Shown here one piece after another: positions 25,705 through 64,000 of a stretch of 64,000 nt of DNA (position 1 is the first letter of the stretch; each line of letters opens with the position of its first letter). A program made the translations under genes and the position numbers. Origin of the DNA: an uncultured Pseudomonadota bacterium (GTDB taxonomy: Bacteria > Desulfobacterota > Binatia > Binatales > Binataceae); the NCBI GenBank assembly GCA_963759165.1, contig CAVWXK010000001.1:3203725-3267724 (forward strand). The letters are read 5' to 3'. The notes beneath the pieces were generated by a model. It worked only from the letters and a program-made list of their open reading frames with translations, ran no database searches and was not told the DNA's origin.

Positions 25705-25708
<4 letters not shown>
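24865..25708 (-). CDS. kdsA: KDO-8-phosphate synthase, one frameshift in this assembly
   Basis: [26 protein letters not shown], then [18 protein letters not shown]; extra base near 25199 breaks ERGYS|FGYNN. GTG start overlaps the pyrG TGA. Confidence 0.9.
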
Positions 25709-27367
<1,659 letters not shown>

Positions 27368-28132: not shown

Positions 28133-29719
28133 TAGCTCACTCCGTCCATGGAAATCGTAATGGCCGGAAGACCGCCGGCAAGATATCCGACCTTAGCGGC
28201 TGGTCTAAACTTGCTCTCGCGAAACAATTGCCGAGTGACGATTGAACCCACAAACCGCCCGGCCGGCGACGCGCCGGCCGCCACTGCGAGTTTTACTACT
28301 ACTGCTGCTATTTCGCCCGCCGGATGCGGCTGCGCCGCATCCGCCGCTTGCGGGACTTGGCCTGGGCCGGATCGGTGCGCCGTTTGCGGGCCAGCCGCCG
28401 GTTGCGTCGGTTGCGTTGGCGTGAAGCTTCTGTCATCGCGTCTACCTGTGATTGGAATTGATACACCAGTACCTCGGATCGCCGCGCTAGTGCGGCAGCC
28501 GCGGTGGTGCCCTGATAGCGCGTTACTACTTGCCGTTTGGCGCCCGATGCACGCTGCTCGGTACTGCCCACCGGTACCGGACATAGCGCGCCGACCTGGT
28601 CCAGAACGCGCGTGCCCTCATGCACGATACCTGGCCCACCGGCGCGCCCACCGGCAGCGGTCCGCTGACCGAAGCCGGAACGTCGTACTCGAGCTTGACG
28701 TTGCCGAATTCTGCTCCTTGGGCAGAACGACTCTGACGGTCGCTCGGCGGCCACCGGCTGGATGAGCGGACCGCCCTGGGCCACCTGGACATGGACCGGA
28801 AGTGGTTCGCCGCGCTTCAGGACTCGACGCGAGTGAAGTTATCGAAGCCCCATCGAGTAGATGCGCCGCCTGGCGGAAGCGCTCGGGATTGGAAGGCGCA
28901 CCCAGCACCACCGCGATCAGACGCATATCGCCGCGCTTGGCGGTCGCGGTAAGATTGAAGCCGGCGTGATAGGTGAATCCGGTCTTGAGCCCGTCGCATC
29001 CCTCGAAATGGCCGATCAGATGGTTGGTGTTGTGAAGCACCGCCTCGCCATCGTCGAACGAGCGCCTGCTCCATGGCTCGACCATCGCAGCAGGTCGGTA
29101 TTATGAATCAGCGCGCGGCCCAAGGTGCGCGAGATCGTAGGCGTTGGTGATATCAACGTCGTGCGCGGGACGCGGCGGGAGGCCGTCAACGGTGTTGTAC
29201 ACGGTATGAGTCAGGCCCAGGCTCTGCGCCCGCTGGTTCATCATACGCACGCAGGCCTCGGTCGAGCCGGCGATTTTTTCCGCCACCGCCACCGCGGCGT
29301 CATTCGCCGACTTGATCAATGCCGCCTTCATCAATTCGCCCAGCGGATAGACCTCGCCCTCGCGCAGGCCCAGGTGCGAGCCGCCAGTGGTGGCGGCGCG
29401 TGCCGAGATCCGCACCGGATCGGTCAGGCGGAAACCGTCCCGCCTTAATCTGGTCCTGGGCGACCAGCAGCAGCATCATTTTGGCCATCGAGGCCGGCGG
29501 CCATGGCATTGCGGCATTCGATTCGTAGAGCACCTTGCCGGTATCGGCGTCTTCGAGCAGCGCGCCCCGGTACGGTGGCGCGTGCCTGGCGGTCCGCTTG
29601 GTGTGAGAATGGCGACGAAGCCGTGACCCGGCCTCCGCCTTAAGTGCGGGCAGCAGGATACAGGCGCACAGCGCCGCCGCCGCAGTGGTTAACCATTTTC
29701 TGTTCCGCCACCCTTCCAA
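28132..29719 (-). CDS. dacA: D-alanyl-D-alanine carboxypeptidase (PBP5/DacA family), multiple frameshifts
   Basis: Fragments PPASMAKMM (SxxK), SANDAA (SxN), GLKTGFT (KTG); TTG 29719 follows AGGAGG; boundaries approximate. Confidence 0.8.
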
Positions 29720-34478: not shown

Positions 34479-35405
34479 TCAGCATCCTGCTATCGCGCTC
34501 CCGAAAATGTCGGGATTCTTGCGGTTGTTATGGCGGAACTGAAACTCGTTCAAGTACAGGGGCAGGTATTTCTTGCTGACGTTGTGATAGGTGCCGATCA
34601 CGCCGCGCTTCAGCAGGCTCCAGAAGTTCTCCATGTTGTTCGTGTGAACGACGCCGCGCACGTACTCGCCATGCCGATGGCCGACCGTTTCATGCGGCAG
34701 GCTTTGCCAGCGCTTCAAATACTGGTAGCCGCTGTGCTCGTCGGTTGCGACCAAATCAACCTTGTCGCTGACAGTTTCCGCCACAAAGCGATGCATCGTC
34801 GGCACGTCGGCCCGTTCGATCATCTTGCAGACCAAATTCCCCTTGCGGCTGATGGCTCCGATGACGGGCGTTTTGTCCCAGCCGCCTTTCACGTGCTTCT
34901 TCTTGTCCCAATGGCGGTTTGTGTCTTTGCCGCCGATGTAAGTTTCATCGACTTCGACGACGCCCATCAGCTTGCGGAAGTCAGGATCGGCCAAACCAGC
35001 GCGGAGCCGGTGGCATATGAACCACGCCGTCCGATAAGAGCCGGAACCGATCATCCGATGAATCTGGAGTGCGCTGATGCCCTTCTTGCTGGTCAGCATC
35101 AAGTACAGAACTTTGAACCACGTCAGCAGGGGGTAATTGGTGTTTTCGAAGACCGTCCCGACCAGCACGGAGAAGCGATAGGGCTGGCGCGGATTAGGCG
35201 CACATTTCTTGCAGACCCAGTGCCACGGCTTGAACTTCAGTTCGTAAACCTTTTCGTTGCCGCAACGAGGGCAATGCGGTCCAGCAGGCCAGCGCTGCAA
35301 CGTCAGATATTTCTTACAGGAGTCCTCGTCCGGGAAGATCCGGGCGAACTCCGCAAGCGTCATTTGCTTTACAAACTTGGGTTCATGTCCGTCATTTGTT
35401 GCCAT
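34479..35405 (-). CDS. IS1595 family DDE transposase
   Basis: Zn ribbon CPRC..CKKC, SKKGISALQ, VEVDETY, TDEHSGY, HTNNMENFWS, YLNEFQFRHN. Confidence 0.95.
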   Translation of the reverse strand: MATNDGHEPKFVKQMTLAEFARIFPDEDSCKKYLTLQRWPAGPHCPRCGNEKVYELKFKPWHWVCKKCAPNPRQPYRFSVLVGTVFENTNYPLLTWFKVLYLMLTSKKGISALQIHRMIGSGSYRTAWFICHRLRAGLADPDFRKLMGVVEVDETYIGGKDTNRHWDKKKHVKGGWDKTPVIGAISRKGNLVCKMIERADVPTMHRFVAETVSDKVDLVATDEHSGYQYLKRWQSLPHETVGHRHGEYVRGVVHTNNMENFWSLLKRGVIGTYHNVSKKYLPLYLNEFQFRHNNRKNPDIFGSAIAGC

Positions 35406-35411
35406 GGTTCG

Positions 35412-35440
35412 AACATAGCGCAAGATACGATGGTTGTCAA
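35412..35440 (-). promoter_or_regulatory. Transposase promoter (-35 in right TIR)
   Basis: Minus strand TTGACA (35440-35435), 17 bp, TATGTT (35417-35412), 6 nt before ATG 35405. Confidence 0.65.
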
Positions 35441-51887: not shown

Positions 51888-52164
51888 GGTCCACCTCTTC
51901 TGGGGCAGTTCCCCAGGTTGTTTTATTGGAGCTTGAGTACCTCGGTTGCGCCGCTCCGGTAAAGCGACGCTTGGCCGGAAAGCGATGCGAAATAAGTCGG
52001 CCCGGCGATCGCGATTTCATTGACGCCGGATCGAAATTAGAACTGTTTACAAAAATGCAAAAATTTATTAGTTGGGTTAATGTTTCGGCGGTTTGAGAAT
52101 TCGATCGCCGGCTTACGGCGCCCTGAACGCAAACGCGACTTTCGGGAATCGGAGGTACGAGACC

Positions 52165-53394
52165 ATGGAATTCGTCGAATACGATCTGACGCTGACCGAT
52201 GAGCAGCGCGAGATTCGCAACACCGCCCGCAAATTCGCGCGCGAAGTGCTGCGGCCGGTCGGTATCGCGCTCGACAAGATGGCGCCTGAAGCCGTGATCG
52301 CTTCCGGCTCCCCCTTCTACAGCGTGCTGCGCCAGGCGCACGAGTTGGGTTTCGACCGGATGTCCGGTTTGCCCGAACAAGGCGGCTTGGGAGCGTCGCC
52401 GCTGACCCAGCAGATCGTGCTCGAGGAACTGTCATGGGGAAACGCGGGACTGGCGGGATCGATCCTGCTCTCGGCCTTCCCGCCCGAAGCCGCGATGGCG
52501 ACCATGAATCCCGAACTCATCGAAGAGTTCGCCGCGCCGCATTACGCAGGGTCGGGTCCGCTAAGGATCGGCGCCTGGGCGATCACGGAACCCGATCACG
52601 GATCGGACCAACTCGGTCTTTCGCGCCCGGAACTGCGAGTGAAGGGGCCGGGCCAGCTCGTCGCGCGGCGCGACGGAGATTCGTGGGTGCTCAACGGCCA
52701 GAAATCGGCGTGGGTATCCAACGGCCCGATCGCCACTCACGCGGTGTTGTTCCTCAATCTTGAGCCGAACAACGGGCTGGAGCGCGGCGGCGTATCTATC
52801 CTGCCGCTGAATCTGCCCGGCATTTCCCGGGGCAAGCCGCTCGACAAGCACGGGCTGCGCGCGCTGCCTCAGGGCGAGATCTACTTCGACGACGTGCGCC
52901 TGCCGCGCCGCTATATGACTATCGAAGCCGACGCATACTCGATGTACCTCGACGCGACGCTGACCGCTTTCAACGCCGGCGTCAGCGCGATGGGGGCCGG
53001 GATGGCGCGCGCCGCGTTCGACTGTGCGCTCGCCTACACCAAGGAGCGCGTTCAGGGCGGGCGGCCGATTTTCGACCATCAGTCGGTGCGCGCGCGGCTG
53101 TTCCGGATGTTCTCGCTCGTGCAGGCCTGCGAAGCGTTGTCGCGCAGCGTCTACGTTTACAACCTCACGCAGCTGCACAACGGCCAGCCCGGACTGCTCC
53201 ATCATTCGATCGCGGCCAAAGTGTTCTGCACCGACGCGGCGCTCGAAGTCGCCACACTCGCGGTGCAGCTCCACGGCGGCAACGGGATGACCAAGGAGTA
53301 TCCGGTCGAGATGCTGCTGCGAGACGCGACCGCCTGCACGATCGCCGACGGCGAGAACGCGTTCCTGAGTCAGGTCGGCGCCTCGATGCTCTGA
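52165..53394 (+). CDS. Acyl-CoA dehydrogenase family protein
   Basis: WAITEPDHGSD, LNGQKSAWVSNG, ERVQGG, QLHGGNG; ATG 52165 after GGAGG. Confidence 0.9.
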   Translation: MEFVEYDLTLTDEQREIRNTARKFAREVLRPVGIALDKMAPEAVIASGSPFYSVLRQAHELGFDRMSGLPEQGGLGASPLTQQIVLEELSWGNAGLAGSILLSAFPPEAAMATMNPELIEEFAAPHYAGSGPLRIGAWAITEPDHGSDQLGLSRPELRVKGPGQLVARRDGDSWVLNGQKSAWVSNGPIATHAVLFLNLEPNNGLERGGVSILPLNLPGISRGKPLDKHGLRALPQGEIYFDDVRLPRRYMTIEADAYSMYLDATLTAFNAGVSAMGAGMARAAFDCALAYTKERVQGGRPIFDHQSVRARLFRMFSLVQACEALSRSVYVYNLTQLHNGQPGLLHHSIAAKVFCTDAALEVATLAVQLHGGNGMTKEYPVEMLLRDATACTIADGENAFLSQVGASML

Positions 53395-53703: not shown

Positions 53704-54303
53704 ATGCCAAACGACATTGACTCGGACGTGCCGCAGGACGAATTCGGGGTTCTCGCCCAGGTATTGGATGCGCTCAAGAAACTAAACGCCGAGGATAGGG
53801 AGCGCATTCTCCGGACGGTCGCGACGTTCTTCGGATTATCTGTCGGAGTATTCTCGCAGCCCTCTGCCGGCCGCGCCGAGTCGGCCTCCTCGGCCGAGTC
53901 CTCGTTTTCTGAGGATCGCTCCATCTCTCCGAAGCAGTTCCTACTCGAGAAATCACCGCGTACTGATGTCGAACGAGTCGCGTGTTTGGGTTTTTATCTG
54001 GCCCACTATCGCGACACACCCCACTTCAAGACCCTTGATATAAGCAAGCTCAACACAGAGGCTGCACAGGTCAAGTTCGCTAACGCAGCGTACGCGGTAG
54101 CCAATGCAACCAAGATGAGGTATCTTGCGCCAGCGGCAAAAGGAACTAAGCAGCTGAGTGCCTTAGGTGAGAATTTTGTTCTCGCCCTGCCGGATCGCGA
54201 AAAGGCAAAGGCTGCTATGGCGCAGATGCGACTGCGACGGCGTTCCCGTAGAACGAGCCAACCGAACCCTAAACAGTCTGACGACAGCACGTCCAACAGC
54301 TAA
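53704..54303 (+). CDS. Hypothetical protein, putative C-terminal winged-helix domain
   Basis: GGAG RBS; helical N-domain, Ser-rich linker, SPKQFL..K..TDVERVACLGFYL...QLSALGENFV; stop overlaps the next ATG (TAATG). Confidence 0.7.
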   Translation: MPNDIDSDVPQDEFGVLAQVLDALKKLNAEDRERILRTVATFFGLSVGVFSQPSAGRAESASSAESSFSEDRSISPKQFLLEKSPRTDVERVACLGFYLAHYRDTPHFKTLDISKLNTEAAQVKFANAAYAVANATKMRYLAPAAKGTKQLSALGENFVLALPDREKAKAAMAQMRLRRRSRRTSQPNPKQSDDSTSNS

Positions 54304-55319
54304 TGTCCGCCCATCCAGGTATGCAGGAGAAACGCAACTCGGTCCGGCTTGCGATCTTCAACCACAAAGGCGGCGTGGGCAAAACCACTCTTACGGTCAA
54401 CATCGCTGCAGCGCTCGCTTCCCTTGGGAAAAGAGTGCTTCTCGTCGATTCAGATCCGCAATGTAGCTTAAGCGCTTATTCAGTTGAGGAAGAGGTTCTC
54501 GACGACTTGCTCGACAACTCCGACAAGCCGTCCGGTCGTACTTTGTGGTCAGCAATTAGACCGGTTGTCGAGGCGACGGGGGATGTTCGACTTATCAAAC
54601 CTCTTGAGCGGACCGAAAACATTTTCCTTTTCCCCGGTGACATCCGCTTATCTGATTTCGAGGAACAGCTCTCTATGCTGTGGAGCGATTGCCTCCAAAG
54701 GAAATCTCGTGGATTTACGGGAACGAGCGCGCTAAGCTTTCTCATTGATGACGCCGAACGGCGACATAAAATCAACTTCACCTTCTATGATGCGGGGCCC
54801 AACATAGGCCCTCTCAATCGAATTATTCTGCTCGACTGCGACTACTTTATTGTCCCCGCCGCTTGCGATCTTTTTTCGGTCCGAGCTTTCAAGACCTTGG
54901 GGCATACCCTTGCTACTTGGATTCAGCACTGGAGTACTATCCTTGAGCTAGCGCCGTCGAATGCCCGTCTACTCCCAGGATCTCCGCGTTTTCTCGGATA
55001 CATTCCGCAACGATTCAAGACCTACCGCGGGCAGGTTAGCAAAGGCTACGCTGCCTATCTCCCTCGAATTGAAAAAAGCATTCGCAGTGATCTCGTCTCC
55101 GTCCTGCGTAATGTCGATAAGCGACTCGTCTCGTCAAACCTGGGCCAACACAAACTTGGAGAAGTGAAGGAGTTCGGCAGTATTGCCAATGCGTCGCAGG
55201 CGACAGGCGTTCCAATGAAGGATGTCTCAGCCGGCACAGCACAGCAAAGAGCGGACGCAGCTAAGACGTTCCTCGCGATTGCGCAGAACATCATAAGCCG
55301 CGCCGCCGGGCGGGTCTAG
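54303..55319 (+). CDS. ParA/MinD-family (AAA_31) ATPase
   Basis: Deviant Walker A NHKGGVGKTT, DSDPQCS, YDAGPNIGPLN. Confidence 0.9.
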   Translation: MSAHPGMQEKRNSVRLAIFNHKGGVGKTTLTVNIAAALASLGKRVLLVDSDPQCSLSAYSVEEEVLDDLLDNSDKPSGRTLWSAIRPVVEATGDVRLIKPLERTENIFLFPGDIRLSDFEEQLSMLWSDCLQRKSRGFTGTSALSFLIDDAERRHKINFTFYDAGPNIGPLNRIILLDCDYFIVPAACDLFSVRAFKTLGHTLATWIQHWSTILELAPSNARLLPGSPRFLGYIPQRFKTYRGQVSKGYAAYLPRIEKSIRSDLVSVLRNVDKRLVSSNLGQHKLGEVKEFGSIANASQATGVPMKDVSAGTAQQRADAAKTFLAIAQNIISRAAGRV

Positions 55320-55320
55320 G

Positions 55321-56089
55321 ATGGCGCGCCCGATTCTTGCCCGCTCCGACCAGACGCTAATCGATAGAATAGTGGACTCCTATCTCGATCCGCACACCTA
55401 CGATGCAATCGAGCGATTTCGCGACCATGTGCTCACAGAGCCTCTTTGGAGCTATGAAGCAGCGACAACCCCTGCACGGGCTCATCCATTCTCTCAAGCA
55501 CAGGATGAAAGATCCCGAGCACCTGCGGGACAAGTTGGCTCGCAAGCTCTGCGAATGCCGTAACGCCAACAAAAGGTTTACCGTAACTCCCGACAACCTC
55601 CTAACACGCATAACGGACCTGGCTGGGTGTAGAATTTTGCACCTTCACACGCGTCAAATGGAACGTATTCACCCAGTCCTTTTGGATCTGATTCGAGCTG
55701 CGCAGTGGGTGCTTTTCGAAAAGCCATTCGTTTACGTTTGGGATGAGGAATGGAAGACCTATTTCCAGAGCATAGGAATTCGAACCCGCCCCAGTCCGAG
55801 ACTTTATTCCAGTGTCCACTACGTAGTTAGGGCTAATTTCAAGAGTAAAATTACGTGTGAGATACAGGTTCGAACTCTGGCAGACGAGATTTGGGGAGAG
55901 ATCGATCATCGACTAAATTATCCGAAGCCCCATGCCAGCCTTGCTTGTCGCGAGCAGTTGGCGGCTTTGGCTAGATTGGCTTCAAGCTGCGGGCGACTCG
56001 TCGATTCTATAATCGTTTCAAATGACGAGTGGGAAAGTAATCGCCACATAGTGCGACGGAAAACGCAATCGGCAGCTGGGCGAGGTTAG
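55321..56089 (+). CDS. Stand-alone RelA/SpoT synthetase domain protein (SAS), one frameshift near 55435
   Basis: RMKDPEHLRDKL, DLAGCR, YSSVH, EIQVRT..EIWGEIDH. The frame from ATG 55321 joins the synthetase frame if one base near 55435 is removed. Confidence 0.85.
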
Positions 56090-56207: not shown

Positions 56208-57797
56208 CTATGGGCCAGCGAAACTGTTGCGCACCTGGATGTGATCGCTGAGCGATATCGCGCCGCTGATTGAGAACGCCATGGTCTCGACCATCAGGCG
56301 GTCGGCTTCGCTCGGCACGGTGCCCCAGAGTTCGATGTTCTGGCCGCCTAGGCGGAAATGGACTTGCCGATAGCCCTGCATGTCGAGCGTCCTGCGCAAC
56401 ATTATCGATCGCGGCGAGGTATGTTGCGGCTCGGCGCTTTCCGGTGGCACCAGGCCGGGGCGGGACGGCGGCTCTTCGGCCTCCGGTTCCGTCGAATATC
56501 CCGGCGGCGCGATTATCCCTTCGGGTCGCACCGACGCGCGATAACCGCTCACGCCCAGCGTTACGAGGGTGAAGGCGAAGGCCGCGATGAAGATCGCGAG
56601 TATCGCGAAGAGCGGAAAACGGGATCGCCGGCGGCGCTCGGGGCCGCGACGGACATGCGCGCCGTCGGAGGGCACGGCGGCAGGGTCGTCGGGTTCGGGC
56701 AGGATGAAGGTTTCCGCTTCCGAAACATTTACTACATCCCCTGCCTGCAGCACCTGCCTCAGGTCGGCGGCGCAATAGGAACAGAAGCGCGAATTCGCCG
56801 GAATCTTCCTGCCGCAGTCGGGGCAGACGAAGCCGACGCTCGCAGCCATCCTGGTCGGAGCCGACGGCGACGCGCCGGCGCGCGGACTTCCCAACGGCAG
56901 ATTAAGCTGCGGCTTGCCCTGGGTTTTTTGCTGCTGGACGACGGCATTGGTGGCGGACTGGGACGCATCGGACGGCGGCGCCGTCGCGGTCGATGAACCA
57001 AGCTTGATCGCAAGCAGACGGCGCTTGAATTCGCTCGCGCTGGAAATCCGGTTCTCAACGTCGTAAGCGAGCGCGTGATCGACGACTTCCGCCAGCGCTG
57101 GATTGACGTCGGGGATTACCTTCCTGAGCGGAGGAAAGCTGAAAGGCGGCTCCGACGTGGGATCGCGTCCTGTCAACGCGTGATGGATAGTCGCGCCGAG
57201 CGCGTAGAGATCGGAGCGAATTTCGACCTTGCCGCGATATTGTTCGGGCGGCGCGTAGCCCTGCGTGCCGATCATCGTCGCGTTGCTGAGCGGCTGAAAG
57301 TGGCGCGCGATCCCGAAGTCGATAAGCTTGACCAGACCGCCCGGCGTCAGCATCACGTTGGAAGGCTTCAAGTCGCGGTAAACGACGGGAGGAACCAGGT
57401 TGTGCAGATAGTCGAGGGTATCGAGGATTTGCAGCGCGATTTCGAGCAGGCGATCCTGTTCGAGCTTGCCGCCCGCGGCCCTGAGCGCCTGTTCGAGCGT
57501 CACGCCGTCGATAAATTCCATCACCAGATAGTGACGGTTCTGTTCGTTGAAGCGGTCGTAGATTCGCGGAATATGTTCGTTGTTAAGCTCGGCCAGCATG
57601 TCGGCTTCGCGCTGGAAGGACGCTACCGCCTGGCTTTGCATCTGGGGGTTGGTGATGCTGTCGACCATCTCCGCCAGGGCGCACGGACGCGCCGCCAGGC
57701 GCAGATCCTCGGCCAGGTAGACCAGCTTCATGCCGCCGCCGCCGAGCGCTTTGACGACCCGGTAGCGGCTTCCCACGATGGTGTTGGCGCTGATCAT
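56208..57797 (-). CDS. Hanks-type Ser/Thr protein kinase with Zn ribbon, TM and C-terminal BON-like domain
   Basis: LGGGGMK, YRDLKPSN, LIDFG, GTQGYAPPE, CPDC..CSYC, TM. Confidence 0.9.
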   Translation of the reverse strand: MISANTIVGSRYRVVKALGGGGMKLVYLAEDLRLAARPCALAEMVDSITNPQMQSQAVASFQREADMLAELNNEHIPRIYDRFNEQNRHYLVMEFIDGVTLEQALRAAGGKLEQDRLLEIALQILDTLDYLHNLVPPVVYRDLKPSNVMLTPGGLVKLIDFGIARHFQPLSNATMIGTQGYAPPEQYRGKVEIRSDLYALGATIHHALTGRDPTSEPPFSFPPLRKVIPDVNPALAEVVDHALAYDVENRISSASEFKRRLLAIKLGSSTATAPPSDASQSATNAVVQQQKTQGKPQLNLPLGSPRAGASPSAPTRMAASVGFVCPDCGRKIPANSRFCSYCAADLRQVLQAGDVVNVSEAETFILPEPDDPAAVPSDGAHVRRGPERRRRSRFPLFAILAIFIAAFAFTLVTLGVSGYRASVRPEGIIAPPGYSTEPEAEEPPSRPGLVPPESAEPQHTSPRSIMLRRTLDMQGYRQVHFRLGGQNIELWGTVPSEADRLMVETMAFSISGAISLSDHIQVRNSFAGP

Positions 57798-57816
57798 AAG
57801 TGGCCGGTGATCCGGG

Positions 57817-58170
57817 TCATCCTTCGAACTGCTTATGCGGTAACCGATTGCGTCGCCTGTGCTCGAACGCGCCGCCCAGCGCCGCGTTGACCGCACATAT
57901 GATGTGCAGCAAGAATCCCAGCGGCGTCGCGAAATACCCGAACGTCACCAGAAAAAACCATCCCACCGCTCGCCCCAAACGGCTCTTATAAAGATGTCCC
58001 AGCCCCGGCACGATGCTCAGGGCAAAAGCGATCCATGGATTCCAGCCAAGCCCGTCTTTCAGCCCAGGGCCGGTCATCAGGGCCGCGCCGCATTCCTTGC
58101 AGAAACTGGCGTCCGTTACCATCACCGACCCGCCGCAGCTCGAACAAAAGCGCGGCGTCGCGCCCCACAT
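57817..58170 (-). CDS. Small Zn-ribbon membrane protein
   Basis: CSSCG..CKECG, IAFALSIVPGLGHLY, TMs; ATG 1 nt after the upstream stop. Confidence 0.75.
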   Translation of the reverse strand: MWGATPRFCSSCGGSVMVTDASFCKECGAALMTGPGLKDGLGWNPWIAFALSIVPGLGHLYKSRLGRAVGWFFLVTFGYFATPLGFLLHIICAVNAALGGAFEHRRRNRLPHKQFEG

Positions 58171-62308: not shown

Positions 62309-62668
62309 TCAACTCAAACCTTCGGCCCTTGCTGCGATGAGAATCCTTGTGGCTTCAGCCAAACGGCGACATTTCTCCCTGTCATTAGCACCTTCGATAA
62401 GAGAATGAGCCGGGTTTTCAGGTAAGGGATCATGCCGAACAGTAAAACCCAAAGATCTCGGGACTCGGGCTACAATGATGCCCAAGGCAAAATTCGGCCG
62501 TGAAGCCAAGCTTGCTTCCGGAGTGGTAAGCCTTGCAAGGTCCACTGAAATTTGCGGATCCGGTTTACCGCACAGCTTGAATGCGGCTGACGCGACGGAA
62601 CCGTCGGGCTTTATGAAGTTTGGAGAAAGTCGGCGATAAAGTTCATCGCTGTCGTCAATCGGTTCCAA
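62309..62668 (-). CDS. Hypothetical 119-aa protein, putative ADP-ribosyltransferase-fold toxin
   Basis: ELYRR ... AAFK ... ISVD ... HDP..NPAHSLI pattern; TTG start 4 nt after the upstream stop. Function is inferred. Confidence 0.55.
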   Translation of the reverse strand: MEPIDDSDELYRRLSPNFIKPDGSVASAAFKLCGKPDPQISVDLARLTTPEASLASRPNFALGIIVARVPRSLGFTVRHDPLPENPAHSLIEGANDREKCRRLAEATRILIAARAEGLS

Positions 62669-62672
62669 GGCT

Positions 62673-63356
62673 TCAGGCGTTGAGTCTAGGTGCTATCGCA
62701 CGACCCACTGTTTCGAAGATCTTTGTCAGCGAGACACGTTCTCTCTCCTCGAACTTTCTCTCTCCCGCGCGGCGTTCTACAAGCAGATAGCTGAGGCTTC
62801 CGTCTGGTCCAATCTCGACCTCAAGTTCGGCTTCCGGTCCTGCCCATTCAATTTGCACGCCACCGCCAGCAATTGGAACTACTGCATAGGGTCTAGCTAG
62901 CTCGCCTGAGAGACCACCGAATTTTTCAGCCACCTCGATTACCAACCGTCGGGCTGCCGAGATCGCTTGCGAAGACGGCGGCGCGCCACCATACGAGTCC
63001 CAGTCCTGAGCGAGACCGGAAAGCTGAACTAACCGCTGCAAAGCGGGTTGCAGTGAGACCCCTGTCTTCGGCGTGGCCCGTGTATCTGCAGCAGGCTCAT
63101 CGGAAAACACCTGCAGCAGAGCTGCTATCAACCGGATATATGTGGCACCCGGACGGACATCAGCGCTAAAAGTCCGCAGAGGTAGCGCCAACATATGACT
63201 TGAGAGTATTTCTCCATAGAAGATGCGGCGTATTTGTTCGAGATTTGGAGTGTAGGAGGCCGCAGAACCACGTACCATCTCAGGAGGAAGCGCACCTGTT
63301 GCTGATGTTTTAGACGGTTCGGCTGTTCTTGAAACTATCAGCGTGGACGTTCTCAC
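62673..63356 (-). CDS. Hypothetical protein (putative antitoxin)
   Basis: Low-complexity N-half; C-domain LQRLVQL..L..DWDSYGG.PP...VP..GGGVQIEW...LEVEI.PDG. Confidence 0.6.
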   Translation of the reverse strand: MRTSTLIVSRTAEPSKTSATGALPPEMVRGSAASYTPNLEQIRRIFYGEILSSHMLALPLRTFSADVRPGATYIRLIAALLQVFSDEPAADTRATPKTGVSLQPALQRLVQLSGLAQDWDSYGGAPPSSQAISAARRLVIEVAEKFGGLSGELARPYAVVPIAGGGVQIEWAGPEAELEVEIGPDGSLSYLLVERRAGERKFEERERVSLTKIFETVGRAIAPRLNA

Positions 63357-63390
63357 GTGTAGCGGAGGTGTTGGTTTCTGGCACCGGCAA

Positions 63391-64000
63391 TTAAGCTCCC
63401 GAAGAATTCCGTATGGGGAAGTACAAATCGACTATCTTGTTGAGTTCGTCAGCGGCGCGCTCAAACATTGAAGCCATCTCAGATTTATCGAAACGGCGCT
63501 GCTCCCGTTCTTCTGCCAAAGTGTTCATGTCCTGTTCCACTAGGACGTTCTGATATGGCTGGCCAGCCGTCTTTATACGTATCCAGCTATTGACACGCAG
63601 ATTCGGAAGTAACGAGAAGACCTTATGTGCGTGAAGCTCGAAACCCTCAGGGCGGTTTAGGGGGCCGCGCAACCACTCATCGCGGCAGAACTTTTCAGCA
63701 AGCAGACGCCCCGGTTGCGGGATAGCAGCGAGCCGAGTAACAAGCGCCGCCAAGCGGCCTGGGCTGGCTCCATTCTTTTTAAAGATCCAAGCCATTCGCT
63801 CAGCAAAGCCCGCGTAAATTTCCGCTAGATCAGCTTGGGCACCGGCCTGTTGATGCCAGAAGAGGTTTAGTCGCTCTCTCGCTACTTGTAGGCTTAGTGT
63901 TTTGTCCTTACTTGATAGCACAACTGCGGGGATTTCTCCCGGAACATCGGGCGGTAGCGGAAGCGACAAAGGCTCTCCGTCGTATACGTCTCCCCATTCC
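63391..64000 (-). CDS. Hypothetical protein, TIGR04255-like/possible SecB-fold chaperone, 5' end beyond window
   Basis: Frame is open to the window edge (EWGDVYDGEPLSLPLPPDVPGEIP...); GRLAALV and VEQDMNT motifs. Confidence 0.6.
   Translation of the reverse strand, partial: EWGDVYDGEPLSLPLPPDVPGEIPAVVLSSKDKTLSLQVARERLNLFWHQQAGAQADLAEIYAGFAERMAWIFKKNGASPGRLAALVTRLAAIPQPGRLLAEKFCRDEWLRGPLNRPEGFELHAHKVFSLLPNLRVNSWIRIKTAGQPYQNVLVEQDMNTLAEEREQRRFDKSEMASMFERAADELNKIVDLYFPIRNSSGA

Follow-up and report, generated by a model that had tools for sequence, protein, structure and literature searches.

A three-gene cassette in a lower-GC island

The DNA analysed here is a stretch of 64 kb (64,000 nucleotides) from contig CAVWXK010000001.1 of an uncultured bacterium, and this whole stretch is called the window. 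Positions 53704-56089 of its plus strand carry a cassette of three genes that forms a lower-GC island. Gene 1 (53704-54303, plus strand) encodes a 199-aa protein predicted to consist of an N-terminal helical hairpin, a disordered linker, a C-terminal winged helix and a basic tail, and gene 2 (54303-55319, plus strand) encodes a 338-aa putative ATPase of the ParA/MinD deviant Walker-A type. Gene 3, a putative small alarmone synthetase (SAS), changes frame as assembled: its 5' part (55321-55447, plus strand, frame 1), assigned by homologue alignment, supplies the N-terminal helix of the synthetase, and the remainder (55448-56089, plus strand, frame 2) supplies the RelA_SpoT domain (PF04607, E 1.1e-14) and a C-terminal helix. 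The stop codon of gene 1 and the start codon of gene 2 overlap in TAATG at 54301-54305, and the stop codon of gene 2 (55317-55319) is followed by one base and then by the ATG of gene 3 at 55321. The GC content of the island is 0.535 versus 0.611 for the window (0.56 in gene 1, 0.534 in gene 2 and 0.516 in gene 3). The cassette is flanked on the left by an acyl-CoA dehydrogenase gene (52093-53394) and on the right by a minus-strand Ser/Thr kinase gene (56208-57896), after which a gene for an FHA protein follows. A preliminary description of this DNA had reported three co-oriented, tightly coupled, low-GC genes inserted between unrelated housekeeping genes, and the open reading frame (ORF) coordinates, both junctions, the GC values and the flanks all agree with it. 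No direct or inverted repeats convincingly bounding the island were found, promoter-like and terminator-like sites at the island were no commoner than in shuffled sequences, no common operator repeat was found 5' of gene 1 among 38 upstream regions (37 loci of the survey described below plus the window), and no tRNA genes were found in the 64-kb window.

Gene 3 encodes a predicted RelQ/RelP-like alarmone synthetase

The only Pfam family matched by gene 3 is RelA_SpoT (PF04607; 55.1 bits versus a cut-off of 27), and it contains no HD domain. The synthetase catalytic positions R-x-K...K, D-x-x-G-x-R, Y-x-S-x-H and E-x-Q-x-R-T, which we take to be the motifs named RxK..K, DxxGxR, YxSxH and ExQxRT, are invariant in alignments of 37 and 30 sequences, and the window copy keeps all of them. 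By its sequence, gene 3 is a small alarmone synthetase of ~255 codons, a RelA/SpoT homologue (RSH) with the RelA_SpoT domain only and without the regulatory domains of long RSHs, in line with the four motifs and the missing HD domain noted in the preliminary description.

The structure of the gene 3 homologue of locus L001 was modelled with AlphaFold2 (AF2) at a predicted local distance difference test score (pLDDT) of 93.6. The model was closest to RelQ (5dec_B; Z 17.5, root-mean-square deviation (rmsd) 2.4 Å over 185 residues) and RelP (Z 15.4-16.2), followed by an exported SAS (Z 12.5), CapRel (Z 11.6), Tas1 (Z 8.8) and FaRel2 (Z 7.3). Foldseek likewise matched the model to RelQ/RelP at E ~1e-8, and in a profile search of the PDB with the synthetase only RelP and RelQ were found at E ≤ 0.01 (E ~1e-7). 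The sequences themselves are distant, with 17-20% identity to RelQ/RelP and 33 bits against NCBIfam YjbM (cut-off 320). Judged from the model, the synthetase is nearest to RelQ/RelP and much further from CapRel, Tas1 and FaRel2. The available text of Jimmy et al. (2020; PMC7229694) describes RelQ and RelP as non-toxic. The likeness to RelQ/RelP and the distance from CapRel, Tas1 and FaRel2 suggest that the partner proteins may activate the synthetase rather than inhibit it. Nothing found here shows the synthetase to be a toxin in need of restraint, as in the earlier view; the model lies nearest to RelQ/RelP (Z 15-17.5).

As assembled, gene 3 is distributed over two ORFs, 55321-55563 (frame 1, 80 aa) and 55403-56089 (frame 2, 228 aa), which together make up one ~255-aa gene. 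Full-length homologues (~240-260 aa) follow the frame-1 product as far as '...HVLTEPL' and then the frame-2 product from 'GAMKQ...', and this crossing, together with three-frame translation, places the +1 switch at the T-run 55445-55447. With one T fewer in this run, the length equals that of the closest homologues, P0002 and P0003, and the window gene retains all 47 of the 47 invariant columns in the 37-sequence family alignment. The extra T is probably an assembly error, because the host genome assembly (3.85 Mb, 2 contigs) has a marker completeness of just 82.6%, its sole pyrG is split and a carboxypeptidase gene is out of frame. The pyrG gene (CTP synthase; 25705-27364, minus strand), which gives the only CTP_synth_N match of the genome, lies in two frames that meet near 26870-26880 and is split into profile positions 1-162 and 151-265, which points to indel errors in the assembly. 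The D-Ala-D-Ala carboxypeptidase-like gene (28618-29415, minus strand) goes out of frame and back within ~60 nt, which indicates two neighbouring indels. The split pyrG, the frame changes of the carboxypeptidase gene and the retention of all invariant gene 3 residues also weaken the reading of gene 3 as a recent, real pseudogene. A programmed +1 frameshift at CUU-U was considered and rejected, since the break is absent from 51 other loci with an uninterrupted gene 3; the next codon is UGG, and by eye no Shine-Dalgarno-like sequence lies upstream. Only one public read run contains any of the stretch (share 0.06), and its three 151-nt contigs miss position 55445; no RNA data set was listed as holding the stretch. 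Three further ORF pairs of the window were considered as split genes, namely LptA/LptC, LigT/DsbA and an unassigned ORF with a haem-binding-domain ORF, and they proved not to be halves of one gene.

Gene 2 encodes a ParA/MinD-type ATPase and gene 1 a small winged-helix protein

In Pfam, gene 2 matches AAA_31 (85.5 bits, cut-off 27; E 5.5e-24) and CbiA (62.9 bits, 3.7e-17), and among phage protein families it matches phrog_164, 'ParA-like partition protein', at 3.5e-36. Its Walker A motif H-K-G-G-V-G-K-T, the DxD aspartates (D48/D50) and the Walker B D162 are invariant in 31 aligned sequences, and the same alignment reveals conserved motifs that are the family's own. These features assign gene 2, at the sequence level, to the ParA/MinD deviant Walker-A ATPases, with the signature lysine and the Walker A'/B aspartates kept. 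Against the NCBIfam models it reached 60.5 bits for ParA_partition (cut-off 180, residues 16-60 only) and 51 for RepA (cut-off 348). Gene 1 has no Pfam family and thus no ParB-type domain, so the ATPase is indeed of ParA type without a neighbouring ParB, as first described.

Gene 1 has no match in Pfam, PADLOC or PHROGs and only a sub-threshold one in NCBIfam (E 0.16; 11.7 bits versus a cut-off of 30), and in the ESM Atlas it falls into unnamed clusters only. Its AF2 model, built from 40 sequences, has a pLDDT of 85.5, with residues 71-170 in blocks of 89-98, and comprises a two-helix N-terminal element, a variable disordered linker, a confident C-terminal domain and a basic tail. Residues 82-167 of the model align with the winged helix-turn-helix (wHTH) domains of HrcA, PadR and MarR at Z 7-9.4 (rmsd ~3 Å, 72-82 residues); Foldseek alone gave weak matches (best E 0.12). 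As modelled, the C-terminal domain has a winged-helix fold, which bears out the earlier wHTH-like assignment. A gene 1 profile collected 1865 cluster representatives at E ≤ 1e-3, 863 at ≤ 1e-10 and 407 at ≤ 1e-30, which indicates that the family is wider than the trio.

Two loci, L077 (1492-2953, plus strand) and L075 (654-2073, minus strand), contain distant wHTH relatives of gene 1 that match the profile at E 1e-15 to 1e-16, each of them followed by a protein of 274-313 aa. The two larger proteins share 39% identity and have no Pfam match, and their look-alikes in the Atlas carry DUF4145 or AbiJ-type labels, which serve as a lead only. In L075 a MazF/PemK gene adjoins the pair. These two genes may constitute a separate two-gene conflict module, and the arrangement fits a regulator or adaptor serving different effectors.

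The trio is conserved, co-inherited and patchily distributed

For the survey of the trio, the gene 3 alignment was used in a pattern scan of one genome per species, which yielded 88 matched stretches and from these 72 loci, and the partners were detected by tblastn of the three window proteins against the 72 loci. A gene 2 homologue (35-67% identity) lies directly upstream on the same strand in all 62 of the 62 loci with a near-full-length gene 3 relative. A gene 1 homologue (26-67% identity) is present in 58 of the 58 loci with enough upstream DNA, and the other four of the 62 end at a contig edge. The remaining 10 of the 72 loci comprise three at a contig start, four gene 3 fragments without partners (L054, L065, L066 and L069) and three distant synthetases (E 3e-9 to 2e-4). 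The gene-neighbourhood search proposed in the preliminary description hence found the trio conserved elsewhere. Clustering of the ORFs returned three common families, in 69, 62 and 57 loci, with the next flank family in 4; by this clustering no fourth gene is common to the loci, and the flanks differ everywhere. All three genes are single ORFs in 51 of the 72 loci, and most junctions measure -4, -1 or +2 to +3 nt. Split or decayed genes occur in seven loci (L006, L033, L055, L061, L064, L068 and L045), five of which come from one series of long-contig metagenome-assembled genomes, so that some of the breaks may be assembly errors. In L064 (4442-6428), ~1.4 kb of DNA separates the N-terminal from the C-terminal part of the gene 3 homologue, and gene 2 is also split; this locus looks like a decayed cassette copy.

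According to the record titles, the carriers belong to the Acidobacteriota, Nitrospirota, Myxococcota, Planctomycetota, Verrucomicrobiota, Chloroflexota, Gemmatimonadota, Bacteroidota, Pseudomonadota, Armatimonadota, Bacillota and other phyla, and include the cultured Corallococcus, Pinirhizobacter, Pollutibacter and Cognatiluteimonas. The recurrence of these genes, identically ordered, in dozens of genomes that are unrelated is far beyond chance. In 30 intact loci, the identity matrices of the three proteins correlate with each other (Mantel r 0.53, 0.65 and 0.52; p ≤ 0.003), and well-supported clades of the concatenated-protein tree mix phyla, one of them uniting Pseudomonadota, Myxococcota, Acidobacteriota and Bacteroidota at a Shimodaira-Hasegawa-like approximate likelihood-ratio support of 100. 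Within the phylum of the window, a strong gene 1 match was found in 1 of 401 genomes, the window's own (E 2.6e-81), and distant ones in eight others. The island DNA is absent from four genomes of the same family, save for ~55-nt P-loop matches; in these genomes the flank homologues lie on different contigs, and insertion boundaries could not be drawn. Among 401 genomes from the class to which G401 belongs (a Gammaproteobacterium per its record title, holding locus L016), four have a related synthetase; two of the four have the trio, one has a two-gene pair and one has no ATPase gene upstream. The co-occurrence, the correlated identities, the phylum-mixing clades and the patchiness indicate, as far as sequences can, that the cassette is a self-contained, horizontally moving unit.

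A ParA-type gene in a mobile unit may bring to mind the partition locus of a mobile element that carries the synthetase as cargo, in which gene 1 could be a small centromere-binding protein. The matches of gene 2 to phrog_164 and ParA_partition are in keeping with such a locus. However, the ParA_partition score is far below its cut-off and covers only residues 16-60, no ParB-type domain exists in gene 1, and none of 72,556 plasmid records (PLSDB) matches gene 1. Moreover, the cassette stands alone in chromosomes with no other common mobile gene, the synthetase is present in every one of the 62 loci, and the small protein is encoded first, unlike the usual gene order of parA-parB loci. A partition locus is therefore very improbable.

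Two-gene relatives occupy a prophage defence hotspot

In phage records, the synthetase of the trio has just two weak matches. A scan of viral contigs for relatives gave 10 loci. The full trio is present in one of them (L095), and in seven (L096, L097, L098, L099, L100, L101 and L103) a ParA-like gene lies directly upstream of the synthetase gene with no gene 1; L102 and L104 gave no ATPase match. In this two-gene form, which occurs in Proteobacteria, the ATPase (366-382 aa) shares 26-30% identity with gene 2 and the synthetase 41-47% identity with that of the trio. The pair lies 3' of the genes for the terminase large subunit and a P2-type portal protein in L096 and L097, the latter also with an Ogr-like regulator, and the next gene downstream in L097 encodes a P2-family replication endonuclease (gpA). 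In P2-like phages, the cos-proximal region between gpA and gpQ is an anti-phage hotspot that holds old and tin, according to the accessible text of Rousset et al. (2022; PMC9122126). By gene order, the two-gene pair of the P2-like prophage L097 occupies this published gpA-gpQ defence hotspot. Neither RelA nor ParA is mentioned in the main text of that paper or of a 2026 follow-up (PMC13586616). In L100 the pair adjoins genes for a CI-like repressor and a primase, and a Caballeronia replicon carries the same pair, each of the two genes at 50% identity. The two-gene-type synthetase has 3215 database relatives at E ≤ 1e-20 (3330 candidates), with Edwardsiella, Enterobacter, Vibrio and Shewanella among the sources. 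The P2-type ATPase had no match at E ≤ 1e-20 in phage records, and a megablast search of complete E. coli genomes did not find the P2-type pair.

Gene 1 is dispensable in these relatives, and the conserved core is the ATPase with the synthetase, to which gene 1 is an add-on. Of the three-protein unit proposed at first, the coupling of ATPase and synthetase is retained in them, and gene 1 is not.

Stand-alone RelA/SpoT proteins of 343-360 aa with 31-36% identity to the P2-type synthetase were also seen in L108 (3869-4900) and L109 (3920-5002), on Geobacillus and Bacillus cereus-group plasmids, where integrase or recombinase genes adjoin and no ParA gene is present. Of the 97 plasmid records that gave a match, 95 are from Bacillus.

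The distribution also bears on a purely physiological role, in which the ParA-type ATPase, with gene 1 as adaptor, would place or regulate a RelQ-like synthetase on the nucleoid for ordinary (p)ppGpp stress control. RelQ/RelP are the closest structures, the neighbours of the cassette are mostly housekeeping genes, and ParA-type ATPases with small partner proteins are established to position many cargoes. Against it stand the very patchy spread of the cassette (a strong gene 1 match in one of the phylum's 401 genomes, and 4 of 401 in the gammaproteobacterial sample), a GC content lower than that of the host genome, clades that mix phyla and relatives at a prophage hotspot. We consider such a role doubtful.

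A candidate sensor-effector module

When the L001 trio was predicted as a complex of three chains and scored for the synthetase as partner, the outcome was 'weak support' at a median of 0.57 (runs 0.54, 0.63 and 0.57), a value in a range graded more often wrong than right unless the guess is already likely. The best of three controls scored 0.00, as did the prediction in which the ATPase chain was replaced. The pLDDT of the partner was at least 82, and the runs agreed in at least 71% of their contacts. In the calibration of this score, 58 of 80 solved complexes attained the mark, as did 2 of 110 mismatches, and scores of ≤ 0.60 were given by just 7 of the 80 solved complexes and by both mismatches. 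The complex modelling suggested in the preliminary description has thus returned a hint that the synthetase touches the ATPase, with a score in the range that is more often wrong.

In the mechanism that we propose, the core of the system is the ParA/MinD-type ATPase, which would bind and control the RelQ-like small alarmone synthetase, by activation or by inhibition, and gene 1, in the form found in soil bacteria, would probably be a DNA-binding adaptor or the operon's own regulator. The ATPase would act as an ATP-dependent, probably DNA-dependent, dimer switch. A change caused by infection would alter its hold on the synthetase, which would then use ATP to make nucleotides of the (p)ppGpp or (pp)pApp type, and growth would stop. 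As the best reading, the cassette is a new sensor-effector variant of the alarmone-synthetase defence or toxin-antitoxin (TA) systems, and the genomic context suggests that it is probably a candidate for an undescribed phage-defence module. We judge the odds to be even that the cassette is a conflict-type sensor-effector module, serving phage defence or abortive infection, that moves horizontally.

Several observations weigh against a conflict role. The synthetase most resembles RelQ and RelP, both non-toxic according to the available part of PMC7229694, and the window's own synthetase gene is frameshifted as assembled. The hotspot location belongs to the diverged two-gene relatives and not to the trio, and the sole viral contig with the full trio (L095) has no phage gene among the three neighbours tested. 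The range in which the contact score falls counts on the same side. The 109 nearest-neighbour ORFs of 55 loci belong mostly to unrelated housekeeping Pfam families in an uncontrolled count; Phage_integrase occurs in 3 of the 109 and PADLOC families in 1-2 of the 109 each, likewise without a control set. The enrichment near defence genes that had been anticipated did not emerge, in that these 109 neighbours give no clear defence-island signal, an uncontrolled result that speaks for neither enrichment nor absence. Of the candidate conflict system initially put forward, the conserved mobile unit, the relatives at the hotspot and a weak predicted contact speak in its favour, but the toxin role is unsupported and a clear defence-island signal is missing.

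The features of the operon also suit a plain TA or addiction module, in which a toxSAS-type toxin is paired with the ATPase and/or the winged-helix protein as antitoxin and the locus stabilises itself with no role against phages. The tight coupling with stop/start overlaps and the broken cassette copies in several genomes are in its favour, as is the wHTH protein encoded first, which is typical of autoregulating antitoxins. Distant gene-1-like proteins also pair with another candidate effector near a MazF gene, and conserved multi-gene SAS operons marked toxSAS TA systems in the portion of Jimmy et al. (2020; PMC7229694) available. However, the synthetase model is nearest to RelQ/RelP, with FaRel2 and Tas1 far off, an ATPase of 338 aa whose catalytic residues are conserved would be an unusual antitoxin, and the two-gene relatives are located at a defence hotspot of prophages. 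TA and defence roles are, moreover, mutually compatible. A plain TA module is thus unlikely, though slightly less so than the physiological role discussed above.

A more specific form of the sensor-effector reading is that the ATPase senses the state of the nucleoid or cellular ATP. The ATPase would normally sit on chromosomal DNA as an ATP dimer, and the winged-helix protein would tether or tune it; degradation or remodelling of the chromosome by a phage would release the ATPase, and the RelQ-like synthetase would be switched on and flood the cell with alarmone, aborting the infection. We regard this as a speculative scheme that is rather unlikely to hold in full. If it does, it would represent a second, independently evolved immune pathway from DNA integrity to alarmone beside PANGU, and the first immune use of a ParA/MinD switch, with carriers ranging from Acidobacteriota of soil to P2-like prophages in Proteobacteria.

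With CapRel and PANGU, stand-alone alarmone synthetases are coming to be recognised as effectors of immunity, but very few of them have a known mode of activation. In the cassette, an entire synthetase family is strictly tied to a ParA/MinD ATPase, with the trio in at least 62 species-level genomes; switches of this class are known to position cargo on DNA and are not known for immunity. If the module defends against phages, it would offer a new sensing principle in a compact system that is easy to test; if it regulates normal growth instead, it would be the first case of a SAS that is positioned or ATPase-gated.

Other features of the window

An IS1595-family transposase gene (DDE_Tnp_IS1595 2.9e-34 plus a zinc ribbon) is located at 34479-35423 on the minus strand, within a lower-GC stretch at 33-35 kb, and adjoins a 219-aa ORF without a Pfam match. 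At the end of the window, three successive lower-GC ORFs of 119, 227 and 192 aa (62309-63969, minus strand) have no Pfam match and may represent another acquired island.

Comparison with known systems

No full-length match to the cassette was found in PADLOC-DB v2.0.0, and gene 1 had none of any kind there; the partial matches were PDC-M28B on the P-loop (residues 9-51, E 3.3e-8) and weak ones to PDC-S33 (1.7e-4 to 6e-6). No system combining ParA and a SAS was found by full-text searches of the literature, though the supplements of Jimmy et al. (2020) and Rousset et al. (2022) may list one. Both searches are consistent with the initial statement that no named system has this architecture.

RelQ and RelP (SAS1 and SAS2 of Firmicutes; PDB 5dec, 5ded, 6fgk and 6ex0) resemble gene 3 in their single RelA_SpoT domain, size, fold and catalytic motifs, but are encoded by stand-alone housekeeping genes that lack the link to ATPase and wHTH genes. 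The toxSAS systems (FaRel, FaRel2, PhRel, PhRel2 and CapRel, as given in the available text of PMC7229694) and the fused CapRel(SJ46) are likewise stand-alone SASs in coupled two- or three-gene operons on mobile DNA with a controlling partner. In contrast, the partners in the cassette are a ParA-type ATPase and a wHTH protein, and the structural likeness is lower. In the main text of PMC7229694, 'ATPase' does not occur and 'ParA' occurs once as the start of a word.

The closest model for the working of the cassette is PANGU. In type I, as far as the accessible part of the preprint describes it (bioRxiv 10.64898/2026.04.06.716658), the YejK-like nucleoid protein Pag1A activates the GRel toxSAS Pag1B, which is non-toxic alone, to make pppGpp. 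As proposed for the cassette, a DNA-associated partner is encoded beside a SAS effector. In contrast to PANGU, Pfam shows no YejK-type protein in the cassette, with no family for gene 1 and only P-loop NTPase families for gene 2. Its partner is an ATPase, and the model of the ~250-aa synthetase has no separate C-terminal domain like the DNA-mimic domain reported for Pag1B in the same part of the preprint. ParA is not among the top ten operon clusters of that paper, as far as its accessible part shows.

The ParA/MinD positioning ATPases, such as those of ParABS and McdAB, share with gene 2 the deviant Walker A motif, the signature lysine, the aspartates and a small partner encoded alongside. 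The cassette differs from these in that no ParB-type domain is present in gene 1, a synthetase is always linked, and the ATPase carries motifs of its own family and, at ~335 aa, is larger than minimal ParAs.

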